From Candidatus Bathyarchaeota archaeon (GTDB lineage Archaea > Thermoproteota > Bathyarchaeia > TCS64): a stretch of 64,000 bases of DNA. The stretch spans positions 209,341 through 273,340 of the forward strand of contig JBDRQD010000048.1 of the NCBI GenBank assembly GCA_043826455.1, in the 5' to 3' direction. A program made the translations under genes and the position numbers. Of the stretch, positions 22,460-51,996 are shown in pieces; the stretch's first letter is position 1, and every line of letters begins with the position of its first letter. Below the pieces are notes generated by a model. That model did not search any database and had not been told where the DNA came from. It saw only the letters and a list, made by a program, of their open reading frames with translations.

Positions 22460-24434
22460 CTACTCCTCGCCCTTCAGGTGCCTGTCGAACCACCTGACAA
22501 TGTGCTGAAGCCGCTCGACCCTGTGCTTGGGCTTACCTGTGCGGCTCAGACCGTGGGGCTCGTTGGGGAACCTCACGAACTCTGTGGGCACCCCCAGCAC
22601 CTTGAGGGCCGTGAACAGCTGCTCGTCCTGCTCCATGGGGCACCTGTAGTCCTCCTCAGAGTGGATGATGAGGGTCGGCGTCTTGACGTTCCCCATGTAG
22701 GTGATGGGGCTCTTAGCCATCACCTCCTCCAGGTTGTCCCAGGGCCGCTTGCCCCAGGTGACCTCGTGGCTCCTGTAGCTGATGTCGCTGGTCCCCCACA
22801 TGCTGTACCAGTTGCTTATGCTACGCATGGTGACGGCCGCCCTGAACCGGTCCGTGTGGCCTATGATCCAGTTGGTCATGTAGCCGCCGTAGCTGCCCCC
22901 GGCGACGCCCAGCCTGGACGCGTCCACGTAGCCGTAGCTGTCCAGCACGTGGTCCATAGCCTCCATGAGGTCCAGGTAGTCGCGCTCGCCCCAGTGGCCG
23001 CTGATGGCTGCGGCGAACTCCTCACCGAAGCCCGTGCTGCCCCGCGGGTTGGTGTAGACGACAGCGCAGCCGCTGGCGGCGAGCACCTGGAACTCGTGAC
23101 TGGCGGCTGTCACCCCGTAACCGTATGCGCCTCTGGGGCCGCCATGGATCTGGAGCACAGTGGGGTACTTCTCCCCCTCCACGTAGCCGTGGGGTTTCAC
23201 TATCCAGCCCTGGACCTTTACCCCGTCGCTGGCTGTGAACCAGAACTCCTCGGGCGGGACCCACTTGAGCTGCTTCAGGAGCCCCCTGTTCATGTCCGTG
23301 ACCTTCCTGGCGCTGCCCTCACCCAAAGCGTAGAGCTCGCTGGGCGTCGCGTCATCCGTGGCCGTGTAGACGACAGTCTCGCCGTCTCCGTCCAGACTGA
23401 AGCCGCCCACATTCATCTTGCCCTCGGTGACCCAGGAGACCTCGCAGCCCATGGAGGCGCGGCACACGTGGGTGCCTCCCCTGTCGGGGGCAGTGAAGTA
23501 GAGGTGCTCTCCGTCGGGGCTCCACGTGAGGCCACTGCCCACGGTCCTGTCGAATCCCCCTGTGAGGCACCTGGGCTCTCCGCCGTCAACACGTAGCACG
23601 TAGACCCTGTCGCTCTTATGGAACACAAGGTCGGGGTCGTCTATCACGTGGCCCGTGAATGCCAGGTGCTCGCCGTCTGGGCTCCACGCCACCTCGTCTA
23701 TGGGGCCCAGGCCCCTCCATAGTAGCTTGGGTTCTCCGCCCTTGGCGGGGACCAGGTATATGTTCTTGAAGTGGACTAGGTCCGCGTCGGGGTCCATGTT
23801 GGCCACGAAGGCCACCTGCTTTGAGTCGGGGCTCCACGCGTAGGCCTCCACGTCGTACTCGCCGTAAGTGATCTGTTTAGCCTTGCCGCCCCCGCTGGGC
23901 ACCGTGAAGAGGTGCATCCACTTGCCCTCGAAGTATCCCTGGCCGTCGAACCTGTACTTGATGCGGCGGATGATCTTCACGTCGCTCTCCTCTGTGGCCT
24001 TCTCGCCCTTGAAGACCCTCGCAGAGAACAGGATGGATCTGCCGTCGGGGCTCCACTCGGGCTTGGCCACGGCCTCCTCCATGTAGGTGAGCTTCACTGC
24101 CTCGCCTCCGTCCGCCTTCAGGCATCACGAACAGCTGGGGCTTGGGCTTGGCGTCAGGCTTGTCCCGCTCCCCCAGCCTGTTGCTGAGGAAGAGCACCCT
24201 GTCTCCCTTGGGGCTCCACCGGGGGTAAGACTCGTTGCTCTTTCCGTGGGTGAACTGGCGGGGCTTCCCCCGTTTGAGGTCTGTGATCCACAGGTGGGCA
24301 TCATACTTGTTCTCGTCCATGTTCACATCGCTGTACACGAACAGGGCCTCCGCGCCGTCCGGGGAGACCTGTGCGTCCGAGACGGGCGCCGAGGGGAAGA
24401 TGGGCATGAACTTGTAGTCTTCTAGCTTCTTCAT
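22460..24434 (-). pseudogene. S9 family peptidase (acylaminoacyl-peptidase-like) split by a frameshift near 24115
   Basis: N-terminal propeller in ORF 23877..24434 and remainder with IHGGP, GGSYGG, DYRC, PHG in ORF 22460..24097; frames join at FVMP|ADGGEAVKLT. Confidence 0.8.
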
Positions 24435-25392: not shown

Positions 25393-26301
25393 ATGGGCAT
25401 GGAGCCTAGAGGTAGGGTCTGCGTCGTGGGGGCGGGTTTCCTGGGGACGCAGATAGGGGTCGTCAGCGCCAGGCACGGGTACCACGTGAGTATGTGCGAC
25501 ATATCCGGCGACGCGCTGGCCTCATCGAGGAAAGCAGTGAAAGGTTACCTTGGGCAGTGGGCCGCGGAGGGTCAGGTTTCCGGCGATGAGAGCCGCGAGA
25601 TCATGGGGCGGGTGTCCTTCACGGGCGACATGGCTGAGGCGACCGAAGGCGCTGACGTGGTCATAGAGGCCGTCGTCGAGCGCCTGGACGTGAAGCGCGA
25701 CGTGTTTGGGAGGCTGGACGAGCTGTGCCCTCCCGGGACGCTGATAGCCACCAACAGCAGCTCGATACGCGTATCCAAGATCGAGGACGCCACCAGCCAC
25801 CCGGAGCGGGTGCTCAACATGCACTTCTACTCGAACCCGTGGCGCAGCAGGGTCCTAGAGATCATGCGTGGGACCCGCACCTCGGATGAGGCCGTGGAGA
25901 GGGCGGCGGCCTTCAGCAGGAGCATAGGCGTAACGCCGCTCATCGTGCAGAGGGAGAGCACAGGGTTCATCTTCAACAGGGTATGGCGCGCCGTGAAGCG
26001 TGAGTGCCTCAGGGTGGTGGACGAGGGGGTGGCCAGCTTCGAGGACGTGGACAGGGCCTGGATGAGCCTCTACGGGACATCCGCGGGCCCCTTCGGGCTC
26101 ATGGACAGGGTCGGCCTGGACGTGGTCCGCGACATAGAGATGGTCTACTACGGTGAGTCGGGGGACCCGCGGGACGCGCCGCCCAGGGTCCTGCTGGAGA
26201 AGATCGAGAGGGGCGAGCTGGGGGTTAAATCCGGTAGGGGCTTCTACACGTACCCGAACCCCAGCTACATGGAGCCCGGATGGCTCCACGGAGACGCCTG
26301 A
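25393..26301 (+). CDS. 3-hydroxyacyl-CoA dehydrogenase family protein
   Basis: VGAGFLG, IEAVVE, ATNSSS, MHF, GFIFNR, GPFGLMDRVGLD, LGVKSGRGFY. Confidence 0.9.
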   Translation: MGMEPRGRVCVVGAGFLGTQIGVVSARHGYHVSMCDISGDALASSRKAVKGYLGQWAAEGQVSGDESREIMGRVSFTGDMAEATEGADVVIEAVVERLDVKRDVFGRLDELCPPGTLIATNSSSIRVSKIEDATSHPERVLNMHFYSNPWRSRVLEIMRGTRTSDEAVERAAAFSRSIGVTPLIVQRESTGFIFNRVWRAVKRECLRVVDEGVASFEDVDRAWMSLYGTSAGPFGLMDRVGLDVVRDIEMVYYGESGDPRDAPPRVLLEKIERGELGVKSGRGFYTYPNPSYMEPGWLHGDA

Positions 26302-26489
26302 ACCCACGAGCCGGAGACCTGGCGAGACACCGTTACTTTGGGTCGGCTCAAATGGATGTCCGGGTCGAGCAGGGGTACGAGATGGGCCGTCCCTCTCTTC
26401 TCTACCTCCAGTCGGAGGACAAAGGAGATCCCGTTGAGGTGAGCGTCGGCGGTAAGTGCGTGATGATAGCAAAGGGAGAACTAGTTTAA
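26302..26489 (+). pseudogene. C-terminal remnant of a PhzF-family isomerase
   Basis: VEQGYEMGRPSLL..VSVGG..IAKGEL PhzF C-terminus with no N-terminal part. Confidence 0.7.
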
Positions 26490-26522: not shown

Positions 26523-26611
26523 GGGGGTATAATTTTTACCATTCACACAACGGCGGGTTGTTTTGGCTGTCAGGGCATGTGCAGGCTGTCATTGGCAGAG
26601 AATTAAATTCA
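26523..26611 (+). repeat. Left 89-bp inverted repeat
   Basis: gggggtataatttttacc...gagaattaaattca; exact reverse complement of 27739-27827. Confidence 0.95.
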
Positions 26612-26728
26612 AAGCATGTAACTCTGTTAAGCCTGTTTTCAGGAGAAGATATACTCAGTAATTCATTAAGATATATATGGCGCGCGCGTAGGTTTCCCTT
26701 TTTTTATTTCCAATTACTTCTTTTTCAA

Positions 26729-27691
26729 TTATACTATCCTTTCCCTTTTCTTCCACGCCAGCATTGAAAGAAACTCTTGCACGACGCATCCTGCTAGGTA
26801 AGCTGTAATTTGAGTTGGATCAAACGCTGGAAGCACTTCAACGACATCAAATCCAACGTAATTAAGGTTCAGGGTACTGCGCATAAGCTTAAGCCCCTCA
26901 TAGCTTGTAAATCCACCAACTTCGATAGTGCCAGTCCCCGGAGCATATGCAGGATCAAAAAAATCGATATCATAGGTTAAATGAGTTTTTTTGCCTCCAA
27001 CTGTATCAATAATCTTCTGCGCCGCCCACTCAATACCATGTTCATGCAGATCTTTTGCAGTAATTACCGTAAATCCAAGTTCTTCTGACTCTCTAACTGT
27101 ATCCATATTAAAAATGCCTCGAATTCCAACCTGGATAGAGTGCTTTGCATCGATGATACCTTCTTCAACGGCTCTGCGAAATATAGTGCCATGCGTTAGC
27201 TTACTACCATTTTCGCTATCATATGTATCTAAGTGGGCGTCGAATTGCACTAACGAAACAGGGCCATGTTTATGTGCAATTGAGCGTAAAAACGGAAGTG
27301 TAACTGAATGGTCTCCGCCTAGCCCTATTGGGAATACATTTTGGCTAACCACTTCATCGAATTTTTTCTCAATCTCATCGTGGCTGTTCTGAAGATTGCA
27401 TGGATTAATATTGGCATCGCCATACTCGATTCCTGATAAGTATTCGAAAATATCGATATCCAGATTCGGGTTCCCTGAACGAAGCATAATCGACATTTCA
27501 CGAATAGCGGCCGGTCCGAATGCAGCACCTGATCGAAACGTTGTTCCTCCATCACATGGCATGCCAACGATTGCGAAATCCGCACCTGAAAGATCACCTT
27601 TCACATAAGGTAGCTTCATGAATGTGCGGATTCCAGTAAACCGTGTAACTATACTCGGGTCTTCAGGACGATACTTCATAGACTTTGCCAT
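26729..27691 (-). CDS. speB: Agmatinase (ureohydrolase family)
   Basis: GGDHS, FDAHLD, HGT, YDIDFFDPAYAPGTGT.E.GG, DVVEV; GAGGAGG SD before ATG 27691. Confidence 0.88.
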   Translation of the reverse strand: MAKSMKYRPEDPSIVTRFTGIRTFMKLPYVKGDLSGADFAIVGMPCDGGTTFRSGAAFGPAAIREMSIMLRSGNPNLDIDIFEYLSGIEYGDANINPCNLQNSHDEIEKKFDEVVSQNVFPIGLGGDHSVTLPFLRSIAHKHGPVSLVQFDAHLDTYDSENGSKLTHGTIFRRAVEEGIIDAKHSIQVGIRGIFNMDTVRESEELGFTVITAKDLHEHGIEWAAQKIIDTVGGKKTHLTYDIDFFDPAYAPGTGTIEVGGFTSYEGLKLMRSTLNLNYVGFDVVEVLPAFDPTQITAYLAGCVVQEFLSMLAWKKRERIV

Positions 27692-27738
27692 GATTATCCT
27701 CCTCATGCGGTGTATTTTAATTTGGTTTGCGCACGCGC

Positions 27739-27827
27739 TGAATTTAATTCTCTGCCAATGACAGCCTGCACATGCCCTGACAGCCAAAACAACCCGCCGT
27801 TGTGTGAATGGTAAAAATTATACCCCC
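27739..27827 (-). repeat. Right 89-bp inverted repeat
   Basis: tgaatttaattctc...ggtaaaaattataccccc. Confidence 0.95.
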
Positions 27828-27863: not shown

Positions 27864-29579
27864 TTGGCACACACGAGCGTCCCCGAGAGGTACCTGAAGA
27901 CCATCAAGCAGGAGGTGACGGCGAGCAGAGGCGTAGTCGTGACCAACCACCCGCTGGCCAGCGCGGCGGGCGTCCAGGTGATGGCCGGGGGCGGCAACGC
28001 CTTCGACGCAGCCGTCGCGTCCCTCTTCGCCCTCACCGTGGTCGAGCCCATGATGGTGAGCATGTTCGGAGCAGGCTTCTTCGTGTACAGGGACGGAGAG
28101 ACCGGGGAGGTCTCCACCCTCGACGACTACGCGGTGGCCCCCAAGGCCGCCGAGGAGACAATGTACAAGCCCGTGGAGGACCGGAGGCCGGACCAGTACA
28201 TCTTCGAGACAGTAGGCCGCAGGAACATGGTGGGACACCTGAGCGTCGCCACACCAGGCGCCCTCAAGGGGTGGGAGCATGTGCTCAGAGAACATGGAAG
28301 CCTCAGCCTGCGCGAGGTGATGGCGCCGGCCATCCGCCTGGCCCGCGACAGCTACCGGGCTACACCCTACCTGGCGTACATGGTGGAGTATACCCGCCGG
28401 GACCTGGCCCTCTTCGAGGACACGGCCAAGACTTTTCTGCCGGGCGGCAAGCCTATCCGGGCCGGCGACATGGTGGCGATGCCCGAGTACGCCGAGACGC
28501 TGGAAGCGGTGTCCAGGAAGGGATCAGACTACCTCTACCGGGGCGACCTGGGCAGGGCCGTGGTGGACGACATGGAGGACCACGGCGGCATCCTAGCCAT
28601 GGAGGACCTGTCAGCGTACAGGCTCCATGAGAGGCCGCCCGTGACGGGCACCTACCGGGGCAGGTACCGTGTGGCCAGCATGGCCCCGGGCAGCAGCGGC
28701 GGCACCCACATAATACAGATGCTCAACATGCTGGAGCGGTTCGACGTGGCCGCCCTGGGGTTCGGCTCAGCGGACCACATCCACCTCTTCGCCGAGGTCC
28801 TCAAGCTGGCCTTCGCCGACAGGCAGAGGTACATGGGTGACCCGTGGAGGGTGCCCGTGCCCGTGGAGGGCCTGACCAGCAAGGCGTACGCCACGGAGAG
28901 GGTGAAACTGATAGGCGACAAGGCCGGTACCTACATGTTCGGTGACCCGTCAACGTACCATAAAGAGAGCCAGAACACCACCCACGTCTCAGTCATGGAC
29001 GACAGGGGCAACATGGTGGCGGCCACCCAGACCCTCTTCGCCGTCTTCGGCTCAGCTGTCACCGCCACCGGTACGGGGATGTTCCTCAACAACTGCATGG
29101 GGCTCTTCGACCCCCGCCCCGGCAGGGCCAACTCTGTGGCCGGAGGCAAGCGGATGCTCAGTTCCATGACCCCGACGATAGTGCTGAGGGACGAGGCGCC
29201 CTTCCTGTGCCTGGGGTCCCCCGGCGGAACCAGGATATTCCCAGCCATCTGCCAGGCCCTGGTCAACGTCATCGACTTCGGCATGAGCATCCAGCAGGCT
29301 GTCGAGGCGCCCCGGGTGTGGACCATGGGGGTGCCGGGCACTCCAGAGGGGAAGCTCCACGTGGAGCCGGAGCTCAGCAAAGAGACCCTGGAGGAGCTGA
29401 AGAGGAGGGGCCACGACATCCTCTTGGTGCCCAAAGTGGCGGGCGGCATGAACGGCGTGATAGTAGGCGAGGACGGGCTCATGCACGGGGGCGCCTGCTG
29501 GAGGGCCGACGGCACCCCCATGGGGGTCTCAGGCGGAGAGGCGGCGGCCAAGGCCCTGATGGACCAGTTCTCAGTCTAG
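27864..29579 (+). CDS. ggt: Gamma-glutamyltransferase
   Basis: GGNAFDAAVA, VVEP, TTHVSVMD (nucleophile Thr), LSSMTP, GSPGG. Confidence 0.9.
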   Translation: MAHTSVPERYLKTIKQEVTASRGVVVTNHPLASAAGVQVMAGGGNAFDAAVASLFALTVVEPMMVSMFGAGFFVYRDGETGEVSTLDDYAVAPKAAEETMYKPVEDRRPDQYIFETVGRRNMVGHLSVATPGALKGWEHVLREHGSLSLREVMAPAIRLARDSYRATPYLAYMVEYTRRDLALFEDTAKTFLPGGKPIRAGDMVAMPEYAETLEAVSRKGSDYLYRGDLGRAVVDDMEDHGGILAMEDLSAYRLHERPPVTGTYRGRYRVASMAPGSSGGTHIIQMLNMLERFDVAALGFGSADHIHLFAEVLKLAFADRQRYMGDPWRVPVPVEGLTSKAYATERVKLIGDKAGTYMFGDPSTYHKESQNTTHVSVMDDRGNMVAATQTLFAVFGSAVTATGTGMFLNNCMGLFDPRPGRANSVAGGKRMLSSMTPTIVLRDEAPFLCLGSPGGTRIFPAICQALVNVIDFGMSIQQAVEAPRVWTMGVPGTPEGKLHVEPELSKETLEELKRRGHDILLVPKVAGGMNGVIVGEDGLMHGGACWRADGTPMGVSGGEAAAKALMDQFSV

Positions 29580-34665: not shown

Positions 34666-35022
34666 GTGAGTAATCTCACTAAAGAAAAAGTTAGGAACAA
34701 AAGATGGAAAATTTTCTCCGCCTTATCCCAGCCGGCACGGGATAAGCCACCCAGCTAACGATACACCCACCACGCCACCGCCGGACACCCAGTGAGGGGG
34801 GAGGGGGGTAGAGCAAGATAGACCGGAAACGGGCGCCCCACGCCAAAAGGAGCCACAGAACCGGTCCGACGCCGCATGAATCTATGCAAAAACGCTGTCC
34901 ATACCATACAAAAACACGGCACATTCATCACATCAAGCACAGGGCAACGATGGTTGATATGCAAAAAAGGTAGGGGGGTATCAATTAATGGAGAATATTT
35001 TCATTATTAGACGGGATACCCT
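34666..35022 (-). repeat. Dispersed ~310-350 bp non-coding element, copy 1
   Basis: Reverse complement aligns along its length with 46763-47070; 34-bp exact block at 34836-34869. Confidence 0.9.
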
Positions 35023-46560: not shown

Positions 46561-46785
46561 TAAAATCGATACCCCCCTACCTTTTTTGCACATATGCTCC
46601 GGGTCATGGTCTCGCGGTACGAGTTAACTCGTTTTATGACTGAAAAAACAGCCATAAAATGATACCCCCCCTACCTTTTTTCACGTCAATTAATCTGGGA
46701 CACTCAGGCGTCTCATCGGTGTCCGGGTGATCCCGAATGATAGAAAAAAACGCCATTAGGGGGTACCCCCCCTACGTTTTTTATA
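46561..46785 (+). repeat. Three tandem units of (g)ataCCCCCC(C)TAC(C/G)TTTTTT with unique spacers
   Basis: Cores near 46568, 46661, 46763; units 2 and 3 preceded by atga..gaaaaaa(a)c(a)gccat. Confidence 0.8.
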
Positions 46786-47070
46786 CATCAGCCACCAGTG
46801 CGCCGTGCCCGGTGTGCTTGACGGACCGTGATTCTGTGTGGAATGGACGGTGTTTCTGCATAGAATGGGATCGCATCGGACCGGTTCTGTGGCTCCTTTT
46901 GGCGTGGGGTGTCCGATTCCGGTTCACCTGCTCTCCCCCTCCCCCGGGGGTTCTTACGTTGGCGTGGTGGGCGTATCGTTAGCTTGGTGGCTATCCTGTG
47001 CCAGACGGGATAAGGCGGAAAAAATTTTCCATCTTTTGTTTCTTGCTTTTTCTTCAGTGAGATACCTCAT
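46763..47070 (+). repeat. Dispersed non-coding element, copy 2
   Basis: Aligns to the reverse complement of 34666-34985; exact block at 46876-46909. Confidence 0.9.
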
Positions 47071-47695: not shown

Positions 47696-48267
47696 GCCCT
47701 CAGCCCCTGACGCCTAATCTGCCCGGTAACATCGATTGCTCCGCTGAAACCCCCTAGCCTCAGCACCCCGGCCTCAAGCCGCTGACACACGAGACAAACC
47801 ATTAAATCATCCCCCAAAACTAAACATATGTAAAGTATTAAACCTTTACGGATGGGCTGAGCCGAGAAGGTCACCTAAGCACAGCACCACACCCCTAAGA
47901 ATAGTGGTGAGACACGAACCCCGTAAAAAATCGTAAATTCTCAGTCACTAGTAACAAAAGGGCCCAAAAAAACGCTTATTACCAATAACAGGAGTATTGA
48001 ATTTCTCTAATTATTACCTTTCGTAGTTTAATATTAAATTATTGTGAAAACATGAGGGATGGGGTTTGAACCCTACCGCAAGTGGAGACATATTTCTCAA
48101 TACTCCCCATTTTTTATTCATTAATTTGGAGTATGTCACCAATTAAATCAATTATGTCCTGAAAAATCTGCACGCGCAATCTGTCCAGATGGCTGGTAAC
48201 ATTGCTATAATGTCAACCAATGAAGGCTAATATATATAGATTTAACAGAAAGGAAACGTTACAGCAA

Positions 48268-49110
48268 TTATATTAATGCTAAAAATTCTTTTGTAATTAG
48301 CTCAAAATCTCTAACATGTCCATCTCTTTGAGCTTCATAAATACCCCATAGAGGGACATGTTTCTCTGATGCCTTTGAGTAATAAGTTGAATTTCTTGTT
48401 CTATTTTGGAAAACGTATTTTCGTCCTGATTGAGTTTTCCTTACACCTGACATTATTTCATTCATTAAATTAGTCTGTCTAAACATTGTAAAAATAATTC
48501 CTAGAGGCTCAATTTTAGATCCATACATTTCAGTAGTTTTATCAATCACTTCTTCAAGAAGTGGTATTCCGAGTACCGATAATGGGTCTGGTTTAACTGG
48601 TACTAGATAATAATCACAAGCAACAATTCCACTAATGAGAAAAACCGAAAATGTTGGAGGGCAGTCTACGAAAATATAATCATATGCATCTTTGTATTTT
48701 AAAATAAAATTTTGAAGTTTATGCGCCACATCTGTTCTAAAGCTGTGATTGATGATATGAATTGTACTGGGGATGAGGTCTAATGTTTTTCCTTCAATGG
48801 TGGATATTTTTCTAACGTAATCTTCTAACTCTAATTTTTGATGCGATATTGTTTTTATTCCTTCTAGTATGCTATTATAAGTGATATCGTTAGAAAATAA
48901 TATATTGTAAACAGTTGGCTTCTCACCTGAAACCATATCTTCATTCGTTTTAATATCAACTAAATATTGTGTTGCATTATATTGAGGATCTAAATCAATC
49001 ATTAATACTCGTTTATTTTCTCTATAGGCTAGAAAATAGGCTAAATTTATGGCCACAGTTGTTTTACCAACCCCTCCTTTCATATTGAGAAATGCAATCG
49101 TTTGACCCAT
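48268..49110 (-). CDS. ParA/Soj-family ATPase
   Basis: NMKGGVGKTT deviant Walker A, IDLDPQ.N.T, DLIPS, FVDCPP. Confidence 0.9.
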   Translation of the reverse strand: MGQTIAFLNMKGGVGKTTVAINLAYFLAYRENKRVLMIDLDPQYNATQYLVDIKTNEDMVSGEKPTVYNILFSNDITYNSILEGIKTISHQKLELEDYVRKISTIEGKTLDLIPSTIHIINHSFRTDVAHKLQNFILKYKDAYDYIFVDCPPTFSVFLISGIVACDYYLVPVKPDPLSVLGIPLLEEVIDKTTEMYGSKIEPLGIIFTMFRQTNLMNEIMSGVRKTQSGRKYVFQNRTRNSTYYSKASEKHVPLWGIYEAQRDGHVRDFELITKEFLALI

Positions 49111-49225
49111 GTCTTATTCTTAACTTCCAAGTTTTTATTAATTTTTCTGTCTTTTTTTGTGTGTGTGTTTGATTTATTTTTCGTCATTTTTTTATAGTTC
49201 GTAATTTCCTTAATATTGAACGTGC

Positions 49226-49882
49226 ATGAGTTCCGAGTCAAAAGATATTGTCCGATATTTAAAAAAAATTAGTGAGGATATTGACTATATTAAAAAAATG
49301 TATGTAATACAAAATCGATTCGTTATTCATGATAGTCTTGAATCAGTTTTAAATGATGATAGAAAAAAATTAACTTATGATCTATTTGATGGAAACACAT
49401 CTACAAATGATATAATTGAGTTATTGAGATTAAACCGTTCTACTCTATATGCTTGGATTAATCAATGGATGAAAATGGGGATAATTAATTCTGATTTGAA
49501 AAAAGGGAGTAAATTTTATAAAAAAATATTTTCTCTAGAGGATTTGAATATTTCTAAACCCAGCATAGATGAATTCATTGATCGATCTAATTATATGTTT
49601 AATTTACCAAATGATTATGAACTACACAAGTTGTTATCCAATATCAATGTAAAATACCCAAAAGAATTGGAGACTTTAACTCATGATGTTTTTAATAGTT
49701 TTTTTGTGCATGTTTCAGACATTGTCATTGAATATAATAAATCCACCAATAAGAAAAAATTATTATATATACAAGGTCTTAGACAGATTGGAGAGGTAAA
49801 AAAAGATACAGAATTTATTCGCTATTTCAATCAATGGGAAAATAATATTAAACATAAAGATGATAAAATTTGTACCGATTAG
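49226..49882 (+). CDS. Winged-helix DNA-binding hypothetical protein
   Basis: YDLFDG..ST.DII..LRLNRSTLYAWINQWMKMGII HTH-like segment. Confidence 0.65.
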   Translation: MSSESKDIVRYLKKISEDIDYIKKMYVIQNRFVIHDSLESVLNDDRKKLTYDLFDGNTSTNDIIELLRLNRSTLYAWINQWMKMGIINSDLKKGSKFYKKIFSLEDLNISKPSIDEFIDRSNYMFNLPNDYELHKLLSNINVKYPKELETLTHDVFNSFFVHVSDIVIEYNKSTNKKKLLYIQGLRQIGEVKKDTEFIRYFNQWENNIKHKDDKICTD

Positions 49883-50601
49883 GAGAGAAATATAAAAGAA
49901 TAATACATGATGATTTTTTAAATGTAATATTCTACTATGATAATTTAACAAGTGATCAAAACTTATCATCGTATTATTCATTATTATTAAAATCAGTGCA
50001 TGATTTTGCGTTTACCATCTGTATTTTGGTTGATAACGCCCATTCTCCAATCCATTCAATGCCGTATTTACTTCAAATGAAATCGAGCACAATTCAAATG
50101 GTGGCGTCCATCGCTCAATTCAATCATTCTTCGTATAAACTACATCAAAGGATCGTTCTTGAAAATCTTTTAAGATATATTTACTATTATCATCATGAGA
50201 TTGAGCATATATCTGTTCAAATAGATCCATCCAAATATAATACGATTAGACATTTATTTGATTATTTGTACAACCATCCATTTTTAAAATTATTCAATAA
50301 TCCTGATCTAATAAAAAATACTATTGGAAATTTGGATACATATTATAAAATGATAAGTAAGGAGATACATAAAAGCACGATTAAAGAAATGAGCATAATC
50401 ACATCACTTTCTGAAATTACTTTTCCACATGATAAAATAACTGAAGAAATTGATGTTCTTATAAAAATGTTAGACGATATAGTTTTTATAATGTATTGTT
50501 TTAACAATAGTGATTATATTGCTCTTCCTTTTGAGGAAAAAATATATTTATTAAAGAAAATTAGTCGAGAAAAAAGGCGTTTAGTAAATAAATTAGTTTA
50601 G
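49870..50601 (+). CDS. Helical hypothetical protein, HEPN-like
   Basis: R..LE (QRIVLEN) and Y..IS..IH (YKMISKEIH) pattern; start uncertain. Confidence 0.5.
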   Translation: MYRLGEKYKRIIHDDFLNVIFYYDNLTSDQNLSSYYSLLLKSVHDFAFTICILVDNAHSPIHSMPYLLQMKSSTIQMVASIAQFNHSSYKLHQRIVLENLLRYIYYYHHEIEHISVQIDPSKYNTIRHLFDYLYNHPFLKLFNNPDLIKNTIGNLDTYYKMISKEIHKSTIKEMSIITSLSEITFPHDKITEEIDVLIKMLDDIVFIMYCFNNSDYIALPFEEKIYLLKKISREKRRLVNKLV

Positions 50602-50928
50602 ATTGAGACGCGCTCGCAGTTATTAAATTAATTTAAAAATACTTCATGAAAGGGTATCCCGCCTATAAAGAAAAACATCGATTAAAATTATAGTGAAAAA
50701 GGCTAATAAAAATTTGGTAATCAATAAGATGAAAATTATTTCATATTGCGTACGCGTCATTGATCTCCTTGTTCTTGTCACTGTCAAGGATGGTCTCATT
50801 GTAGCTGTCGTTGAAATAGTTTCTATTTATTAAGATTATATTAAAGGAATTTAAAATACTGTCTATAATAAAATACTAACTATAAGATAAGAAAATCAAA
50901 ATAACGATTACAAGTAGCTTGTAACAAA

Positions 50929-51996
50929 CTAGAAGTGGCGGAAGCACCGCTCATCGGTGAACGCCATGGCGATCCCCGCCTCGTCACAAGCCTCGATGAC
51001 TTCCTTGTCCTGGACGCTACCCCCCGGCTGAACACACGCAGTCACACCGTGCACAGCCAGCAGGTCCACGCTGTCCCTGAAGGGGAAGAACCCGTCAGAG
51101 GCCAGAACAGAGCCAGCTACGGCGTTCGCGTGGCCTCTCATCTCCGCCTTCTCCAGAGCCAGCTTCACCGCCGTCACCCTGTCCTGCTGGCCTGTGCCGA
51201 CGCCGATGGTGGCCCCGTCCTTGCTCAGGACGACGCCGTTGCTGCGGACGTTCATGCACACGTACCAGCTGAACAGCAGGTCCTTAACCTCCTGCTCCGT
51301 CCCGTGCCTCACGGTGACCCACCTCAGGTCCTCTGGGCTCCTCACCTTTGTCAGCATAGGTGCCTGGAGCACCAGGCTGCCGTCCATCTGGACGCTGATG
51401 TCCAGGGGCTCAGGGGGGTCCCCCACCCACTTGCTGATCCCGTCGAGGCCCGTGACCTCCATGACCCTGATGTCCTTCTTCTGCTCAAAGTGCTCCATGC
51501 AGCCCGGCTCGTAGCCCGGCGCCACGACGGCCTCCACGTAGCTGCTCATTATCTCCTCAGCCGTGTCCGGGTCCACCACAGTGTTGAATCCCACGACGCT
51601 GCCGTACGCGGCCAAAGCGTCACAGTCCCTTGCCTTCCTGTAGACCTCCCTGAGGGGCTCACCCGGCCTGTTCCTGACAGCCGCCCCGCTGGGGTTCACA
51701 TGCTTCATGACGGCGCACGCCGGCTCCCTGAAGTAACTGACGATCCTCATGGCGTTGTTAACGTCCTCCACGTTGGTCATGCTGAGGCCGCTCTTACCCG
51801 TCTTAAGCAGCTTCAGGTCGCCTACAGTCAGGGGCCCCTCCGCGGGGCTGTAGAAGGCGGCGGGCTGGTGGGGGTTCTCCCCGTACCTGAGGCTCATCTT
51901 CTTCCTGTACAGCCTCTCCGAGCCGCCTATGATGATCCTTATCTCCTCGGGGAACTGTTCCTCGAGGGATGTCCGGTACTTTTTCCTCATGCTCAT
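50929..51996 (-). CDS. purH: AICAR transformylase part of PurH (stand-alone)
   Basis: LRYGENPHQ, MKHVNP, SNGVV, GTGQQDR, ASDGFFPFRD, QPGGS, RCFRH. Confidence 0.88.
   Translation of the reverse strand: MSMRKKYRTSLEEQFPEEIRIIIGGSERLYRKKMSLRYGENPHQPAAFYSPAEGPLTVGDLKLLKTGKSGLSMTNVEDVNNAMRIVSYFREPACAVMKHVNPSGAAVRNRPGEPLREVYRKARDCDALAAYGSVVGFNTVVDPDTAEEIMSSYVEAVVAPGYEPGCMEHFEQKKDIRVMEVTGLDGISKWVGDPPEPLDISVQMDGSLVLQAPMLTKVRSPEDLRWVTVRHGTEQEVKDLLFSWYVCMNVRSNGVVLSKDGATIGVGTGQQDRVTAVKLALEKAEMRGHANAVAGSVLASDGFFPFRDSVDLLAVHGVTACVQPGGSVQDKEVIEACDEAGIAMAFTDERCFRHF

Follow-up and report, generated by a model that had tools for sequence, protein, structure and literature searches.

The window that we analysed, a stretch of 64,000 nucleotides from a Candidatus Bathyarchaeota archaeon, contains a single small gene packaged between two 89-bp arms. 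The left arm (26523–26611, + strand) and the right arm (27739–27827, − strand) are exact reverse complements, and the match ends at these positions. Each carries an internal direct repeat, GGCTGTCA, at positions 43 and 62 of the inverted repeat, a spacing of 19 bp. By the open reading frame list and Pfam, the interior holds one ureohydrolase gene and no transposase or recombinase, and the outer ends show no direct repeat of 3 bp or more (offsets 0–3) that could represent a target-site duplication. A first-pass annotation of the sequence had claimed the perfect arms, the short internal repeat, a lone speB and the lack of a transposase and of a convincing target duplication, and we agree with it. 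The interior has a GC content of 42%, compared with 58% for the genome. To the left lies a host gene for a 3-hydroxyacyl-CoA dehydrogenase (3HCDH; 25393–26301, + strand, identified by Pfam), and to the right a gamma-glutamyltransferase gene (ggt; 27864–29579, + strand), whose start we set from orthologues; a start at 27804 would fall inside the inverted repeat. Between the 3HCDH gene and the left arm is a 3′ scrap of a PhzF-family gene (26302–26489, + strand; PF02567, E 0.0056, below the cut-off), which is inside the insert, outside the inverted repeat and probably earlier cargo. Elsewhere in the window, an S9 peptidase gene (22460–24434) appears to be split into two overlapping frames (22460–24097 and 23877–24434), probably by a frameshift, and an island of 31% GC at about 47760–51060 starts with an open reading frame (48268–49110) that looks ParA-like by eye.

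The 89-mer occurs twice in the host assembly (G000, 2.95 Mb), both times at this locus. We found no other locus with 89-bp arms in G000, in 70 family genomes or around four other copies of speB, and no element with these ends in G000, the 70 family genomes, viral contigs or the genome collection. The other long inverted pairs of G000 did not supply an autonomous partner: they belong to an unrelated repeat family of about 330 bp, whose dispersed copies surround ordinary host genes. The copies are 74–93% alike, form inverted pairs 9–20 kb apart, and lie in the window at about 34670–35000 and 46730–47070 and on G000 contigs C39, C64 and C71.

The inverted repeat is not an assembly chimera. Unitig depths in run X1, which is the probable source of the assembly and hence not independent, are 16.8 for the left flank, 34.2 for the 89-bp repeat, 15.8 for the 1187-bp interior and 21.3 for the right flank. 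The repeat unitig has about twice the depth of its neighbours, and therefore there are two arm copies and the insert is present at host depth. The interior unitig has the length, 1187 bp, expected of a repeat-bounded interior at k = 31. None of the contigs listed is an empty allele of the host species.

Each arm is a composite, made of an outer 18 bp that belong to a junction palindrome and 71 bp of a non-coding repeat that we call R. R is about 200 bp long, and its outer end is a palindromic site composed of a G-run, a 7-bp AT core and a C-run, frequently with low-complexity arms. Of 70 other family genomes, 4 contain it, and G000 has one further copy; it invariably adjoins AT-rich accessory genes, and an alignment of 10 copies places its inward end at a GCGC-type word in 9 of them. 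The left copy in the window (26541–26679, + strand) is long and cut at a GCGC word; the right copy (27739–27809) ends with the 89 bp. The two are thus unequal truncations, and the extension of R-family homology inward from the left arm to about 26680 had been overlooked. The aligned copies share no open reading frame and R has no match in Rfam, so that neither a coding remnant nor a known RNA was recognised in it. Two exact patterns gave 0 matches that would point to a viral origin of R or of the site, and the match of a Clostridium record (L052) to a 21-mer is due to chance, as the nhmmer score covers those bases alone.

The sites at the outer ends of the arms are both degenerate; they fold no better than shuffled sequences. 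On the left, the junction palindrome (26523–26540) keeps the order G-run, 7-bp AT core, C-run and has a hairpin z-score of 0.18, compared with about −5 for two full sites. On the right, a site-like word (27810–27827, + strand) includes the probable TATA box of ggt. An X2 contig has the same 21 bp before ggt and no R sequence, which makes the outermost 18 bp of this arm host sequence. The cores of the two sites are inverted rather than direct, so that one circle integration event could not have made the speB unit. The perfect identity over 89 bp needs a recent duplication or conversion.

The gene between the arms (26729–27691, − strand; PF00491) encodes a SpeB-like ureohydrolase of 320 residues with intact metal-binding motifs. 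It scores 213 bits against the agmatinase model TIGR01230 (cut-off 174), and its best PDB matches are guanidinobutyrase, guanidinopropionase and then agmatinase. Its assignment as an agmatinase is an HMM-based prediction. GC3 is 0.36 in speB and 0.86–0.89 in its neighbours. The Shine–Dalgarno-like GAGGAGG upstream (27698–27704, − strand), which had been taken as a bacterial-style ribosome-binding site unlike those of the host, is indeed there, and it is rare before host-like open reading frames (15 of 1187, with rough start positions). However, 218 of the same 1187 are preceded by a Shine–Dalgarno-like 5-mer, and the ribosome-binding site by itself is therefore weak evidence of foreign origin.

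The 90% cluster of SpeB has 54 members, one of them named Bathyarchaeota; the host's own ureohydrolase is 30% identical to SpeB. We built a quick IQ-TREE phylogeny with SH-aLRT support only, a midpoint root and 80 rows (P0001–P0060 and 20 chosen others, minus two shorter than 280 residues, plus two added). SpeB and the Bathyarchaeota protein form a clade (SH-aLRT 99, 93% identity), and a weaker group (SH-aLRT 88) adds Desulfosporosinus (83%) and a Treponema-containing cluster (73%). The earlier claim of a bacterial gene is in keeping with this tree, in which SpeB is of a bacterial, indeed anaerobic-bacterial, type. A bacterial origin is the simplest reading of this midpoint-rooted tree. The accompanying claim, that the insertion was a recent delivery from bacterium to archaeon, is not supported: the 54-member cluster already includes a Bathyarchaeota protein at 93% identity, and therefore the cross-domain step predates the insertion. 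A search of 400 other class genomes did not find this speB at DNA level, so that its spread within Bathyarchaeia rests on that one named protein and on metagenome contigs. These suggest that speB already circulates among Bathyarchaeia, where it probably adds a guanidino-compound hydrolase to a host with a distant ureohydrolase of its own.

The same speB, at 90–97% DNA identity, is present on four metagenome contigs, each time in a different neighbourhood and in no case with arms (0 of 4). Homology to all four begins at a GCGC word (27729–27738) that precedes the start codon by about 45 bp and forms the 5′ boundary of the speB unit; a loose end in X8 falls at 27736. Another GCGC word (26680–26689), of the type targeted by IS1182-like elements, forms the 3′ boundary and contains the joint of a reversed allele (26682) described below. 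Both words had gone unnoticed. On three of the four contigs a junction site lies within about 220 bp upstream of speB.

GCGCGC is depleted in G000 (271 occurrences, compared with 2198 for GGCGCC), and the ends of IS1182-like elements abut GCGC words in 13 of 14 readable cases that include at least four terminal repeat types. The corresponding transposases of G000 score 170–176 bits against an NCBIfam cut-off of 270; copies lie on G000 contigs C57, C69, C67, C34, C29 and C31 and at loci L020 and L096. In one speB contig (L022) the remnant of an IS end, flanked by two GCGC words, lies shortly before speB, and in a second contig an IS end sits within the 3′ end of speB. We infer that IS1182-like elements are responsible both for the inner limits of the speB unit and for the places where R is cut. 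Members of the IS1182 family are reported to target palindromes (PMC4923244), and IS1272 to target hairpins and leave no duplication (PMC4923244, PMC5678879). Among the IS1182-like insertions that we saw, none is at a junction palindrome; their ends lie at GCGC words.

The 3HCDH–ggt interval is a variable slot. In G065 the two genes lie side by side, about 75 bp apart, as they do in an X4 contig (53 other letters), and these empty alleles, which show no target duplication, support the earlier proposal of an insertion mobilised in trans. The slot measures 1.56 kb in the host, 1.55 kb in G008 and 5.2 kb in G013. G008 holds other genes there, and G013 holds formate dehydrogenase-type and other genes (named by reading translations); neither cargo is related to speB. 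Measured against the empty allele, the host insert is about 1.54 kb and includes the phzF scrap, which the empty alleles lack and which had likewise escaped notice as part of the insert. In all three species the right end of the insert falls just to the left of the TTATAC word before ggt. A TTATA or TTTAT word at the same upstream distance in 20 of 23 ggt orthologues is probably a TATA box. The empty allele of G065 keeps only the right half of the site, and our searches, including those in genus g67, yielded no clean empty and filled pair in which the empty allele carries exactly one site.

The speB unit may also occur in the opposite orientation. An X2 contig, from another study and at a depth of 3.15, joins 26682 to 27739 on opposite strands. 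Read from the contig-end columns, this would put the 3′ end of speB beside the right arm and ggt, with the gene reversed. Either of two events would explain it: the segment between the GCGC words was inverted, or the arms recombined and 70 bp were then deleted. The suggestion of an invertible segment is supported to the extent that speB reads as reversed in one contig; the joint there is at GCGC words and not at the arms. The notion that the arms are dedicated cassette ends is not supported. The four other speB contigs lack them, and the arms themselves consist of a junction palindrome or host promoter word together with a repeat of the lineage that is also found next to other cargo. Seen in this way the 89-bp inverted repeat loses some of its apparent singularity, and is one by-product of a wider system.

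Copies of the junction palindrome are dispersed across Bathyarchaeia, at 1–19 per genome, and coincide with breaks in synteny. A 29-letter site pattern matched 10 of 401 class genomes and its reversed control none; a 17-letter pattern matched at 19, 13, 7, 1 and 1 places in five genomes chosen for carrying sites (control 0). A third pattern detected the site in 21 of the 71 genomes of the family, with 5 matches for its control. Neither the 29-letter nor the third pattern detects G000, and a stricter pattern finds the site in only one of five well-assembled family genomes and in 2 of 301 phylum genomes. The sites are simple palindromes of 17–45 bp, and full sites form strong hairpins (z about −5, two tested). 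Paired sites enclose one to few accessory genes. Across 80 sites in 50 loci there are 37 neighbouring pairs, for which the best fit is 25 direct and 12 inverted; exact core matches number 16 direct and 3 inverted (p 0.004), although the orientation call often hangs on one central base, which in one comparison differs with the same flank.

Homology between genomes starts at the site in three direct comparisons. One small gene that is flanked by sites in G339 has a copy at a different place in G379; the two are 96% identical, compared with 80–81% for core genes. In a test of 79 sequences, which is descriptive because loci were selected for sites and breakpoints were counted from both partners, 14 of 88 intergenic homology ends fell within 20 bp of a site (expected 2.4; maximum 8 in 2000 draws) and 15 of 88 fell near a GCGC word (expected 6.8; 3 of 2000 draws reached 15). 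A tRNA-derived att site is not supported by the tRNAs of G000: the longest exact match between four sites and 40 ARAGORN calls in that genome is 10 nt (9 nt in credible tRNAs). We found no description of the junction sites in the open literature that we searched.

Several loci that we came across deserve mention in their own right. Four sites lie between single genes within 9.7 kb at L284 (G421:C5:90000-99710), in a genome assigned to another class of the phylum, through either transfer or mis-binning. Site-bounded units in genomes of two families (L229:5634-6186, L246, L241, L074) contain a gene of some 75 codons, whose copies in G339 and G379 are 96% identical. G000 has a second module (C57:21440-22490, L018), made up of a site, an AT-rich gene and a cut R copy between direct repeats of about 35 bp, which include the 3′ end of a gene. 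At L049 and L073:8897-12410, R is followed by four AT-rich genes (one TIR, one Mrr-like), partly separated by GCGC words, and the locus adjoins a gene for a terminase large subunit and other provirus-like genes. Finally, the TBP gene of L061 has two or three separate matches per genome in G339, G229, G355, G379 and G152, which suggests several TBP paralogues in genus g67.

Our searches for integrases, Cas1 and Y1 transposases tied no recombinase to the junction sites. None of 36 integrase loci has a site within 1.5 kb, and no mobile gene family recurs in three or more loci among 622 site-neighbouring proteins; a linked tyrosine integrase is rejected on these counts. One tyrosine integrase was present among 118 site-neighbouring proteins, 1.6 kb from a site, and G000 has six tyrosine recombinases. 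A PF00589 match of any kind occurs in 52 of 71 family genomes, and in neither of the site-positive genomes G043 (one contig, 92% complete) and G048, so that in these incomplete MAGs no Xer-like gene appears to be universal. Y1 transposases of the RAYT type were rejected because none occurs in five of five site-bearing genomes tested. Solo Cas1 was rejected as the mover because it is unassociated with the sites (5 of 21 site-positive genomes; Fisher p 0.58 over 71 genomes). The presence of a 7-bp core between inverted arms suggests a tyrosine recombinase as the catalyst, and an unlinked enzyme of this class is our first guess, by resemblance to the lambda-type overlap (PMC8371274).

The cas1 genes are of separate interest. 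Of the 71 family genomes, 21 have matches, as many as 10 in a single genome, and many are 3′ fragments; we saw no polB nearby. A solo cas1 with an upstream HTH gene and a divergent run of small open reading frames, one of them unannotated and primase-like by eye (L072:8807-12935, L106:7260-10696, L111:7279-10496), could be an undescribed Cas1 element.

We consider it slightly more probable than not that the locus is an accessory-gene module in a variable chromosomal slot, its arms being two inverted copies of a lineage-wide module end (the site and part of R). The best reading of the locus is as one module of a gene-swapping system that resembles dif modules and has its own sites. An anaerobic-bacterial ureohydrolase gene would have entered the mobile gene pool of Bathyarchaeia some time ago. 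IS1182-like elements acting at GCGC words would then have cut it down to a unit of 1.05 kb and placed it next to an R end. The module would have docked at the site-like promoter word of ggt through recombination in the AT-rich core, most likely catalysed in trans by an unlinked site-specific recombinase. Duplication or gene conversion in the recent past would have given a second, reversed copy of R its identity over 89 bp, and the gene could end up in either orientation. A broader version, which we put forward tentatively and hold to be less probable than its negation, is an integron-like exchange across Bathyarchaeia. A recombinase would swap modules of one to three genes at palindromes and dock them at site-like promoter words, a single pool would serve several families, and IS1182-like elements would feed in bacterial genes at GCGC words; the present locus would be a fresh product with both ends intact.

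Other explanations have to be weighed against the module reading. IS1182-like transposases might do everything, targeting both GCGC words and junction hairpins and leaving the modules as remnants of composite transposons or adjacent deletions, with no site-specific recombinase at all. The elements of G000 do abut GCGC words, L022 has an IS-end remnant between two such words just before speB, the hairpins formed by full sites are strong, and IS1272 is reported to attack hairpins without duplication (PMC4923244, PMC5678879). Nevertheless, we regard this as rather unlikely, because the ends of these elements lie at GCGC words and none was seen at a junction palindrome, and because IS1272 deletes part of its hairpin target whereas the sites here retain both arms on either side of the cargo. 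We also judge it unlikely that the unit is a dedicated non-autonomous transposon of the MIC or TIME kind, with the arms as true terminal repeats, the transposase elsewhere and the unit moving intact. Such an element would account for a long perfect inverted repeat with internal short repeats around one passenger gene and no transposase inside; R, being conserved and non-coding, could be an old element end, and the 9-bp AT core shared directly by paired sites elsewhere can be read as a target duplication. It does not account for the single locus with arms among G000, 70 family genomes and four other speB copies, the missing target duplication at this locus, the outer 18 bp found before ggt without R in X2, or the unequal truncation of R in the two arms.

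The remaining alternatives are weaker. Flipping between the arms or sites could serve as a maintained switch of speB or ggt expression, given that the cores are identical and inverted, as an inversion substrate would be, that the arms include the probable TATA word of ggt and that speB is reversed in one X2 contig. But recombination between identical arms would not alter the ggt promoter, the joint in X2 lies at GCGC words 70 bp inside the R extension of the left arm, no invertase is nearby and the arrangement is found in one species only, all of which make a switch improbable. Solo cas1 drew attention as the only mobile-type family common to three site-bearing loci (338 proteins); it is multi-copy and often broken in family genomes, and some casposon repeats contain palindromes (PMC4046053). 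A casposon-like system, with the sites as ends or targets and solo Cas1 as mover, is nonetheless largely refuted and very improbable: cas1 shows no association with the sites over the 71 genomes, it is absent from G000 and from site-rich G339, and 22 cas1 copies have no site at their 3′ end and no PolB seen near them. An artefact of assembly, or bacterial DNA as a contaminant, might be suspected because the MAG G000 has 7% contamination and unitigs cannot order pieces across an 89-bp repeat; against this stand the X1 depths given above and the recurrence of the R–speB and repeat–ggt junctions in X2 and X4, and we give this explanation next to no weight.

Among known systems, the unit behaves most like the dif modules of Acinetobacter and the cassettes of integrons, yet its sites have the architecture of neither. 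An attC site has two pairs of inverted boxes; judged by eye, the sites here lack this structure. REP/BIME elements with their RAYT transposases (the subject of PMC2817692) are likewise dispersed intergenic hairpins of 20–40 bp. They are found in more than 100 copies per genome, compared with 1–19 here, and here the sites lie at accessory-gene junctions, with no Y1 transposase (5 of 5 genomes). Casposons carry cas1 and polB inside terminal repeats and make a target duplication, and neither feature was found.

The pdif modules of Acinetobacter plasmids, moved by XerC and XerD, resemble the units described here: short sites of recombination type enclose one or a few adaptive genes, the module itself carries no recombinase, almost identical modules occur at different loci, and sizes are 0.8–3 kb (PMC6449649). 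As in those modules, the accessory genes lie between paired sites and are common to genomes at different loci. By contrast, dif sites have an 11-6-11 arrangement (PMC8371274), whereas here a G-run, AT core and C-run form low-complexity arms around a 7-bp core; the sites here are chromosomal, neighbours are mostly co-oriented and our searches gave no link to Xer. Integrons and CALINs, including archaeal ones, share the short arrays of accessory genes, the hairpin-forming sites and the gene flow across domains (bioRxiv 10.1101/2022.02.06.479319, main text); the string ‘Bathy’ is absent from that main text. They differ in that the sites here are short near-perfect palindromes without the inner boxes of attC, the genes lie in either orientation and we found no intI near the sites. 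MIC, TIME and IMU elements (the subject of PMC4133298 and PMC13367494) also place a passenger gene between inverted repeats with no transposase, whereas here there is no target duplication, the arms are unequal fragments of a longer repeat, and neither a second copy of the unit nor a cognate transposase was found. Members of the IS1182 family such as IS1272 and TnSha1 target palindromes and spread single metabolic genes (PMC4923244, PMC5678879), and related transposases in G000 abut GCGC words like those that bound speB. The local transposases, at 170–176 bits against 270, fall below the IS1182 cut-off, and there is no IS inside or beside the speB unit.

Bathyarchaeia are abundant archaea of sediments with a patchwork of accessory metabolism, and the acquisition of single genes by these organisms is poorly explained. 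The combination of a junction site, a slot known in empty and filled forms and a cargo of bacterial origin makes single-gene gain in Bathyarchaeia testable. If the integron-like reading is true, the locus would be a ready substrate for finding the enzyme, and if the catalyst is none of Xer, IntI, Cas1 and Y1 transposase, it may be a new recombinase.
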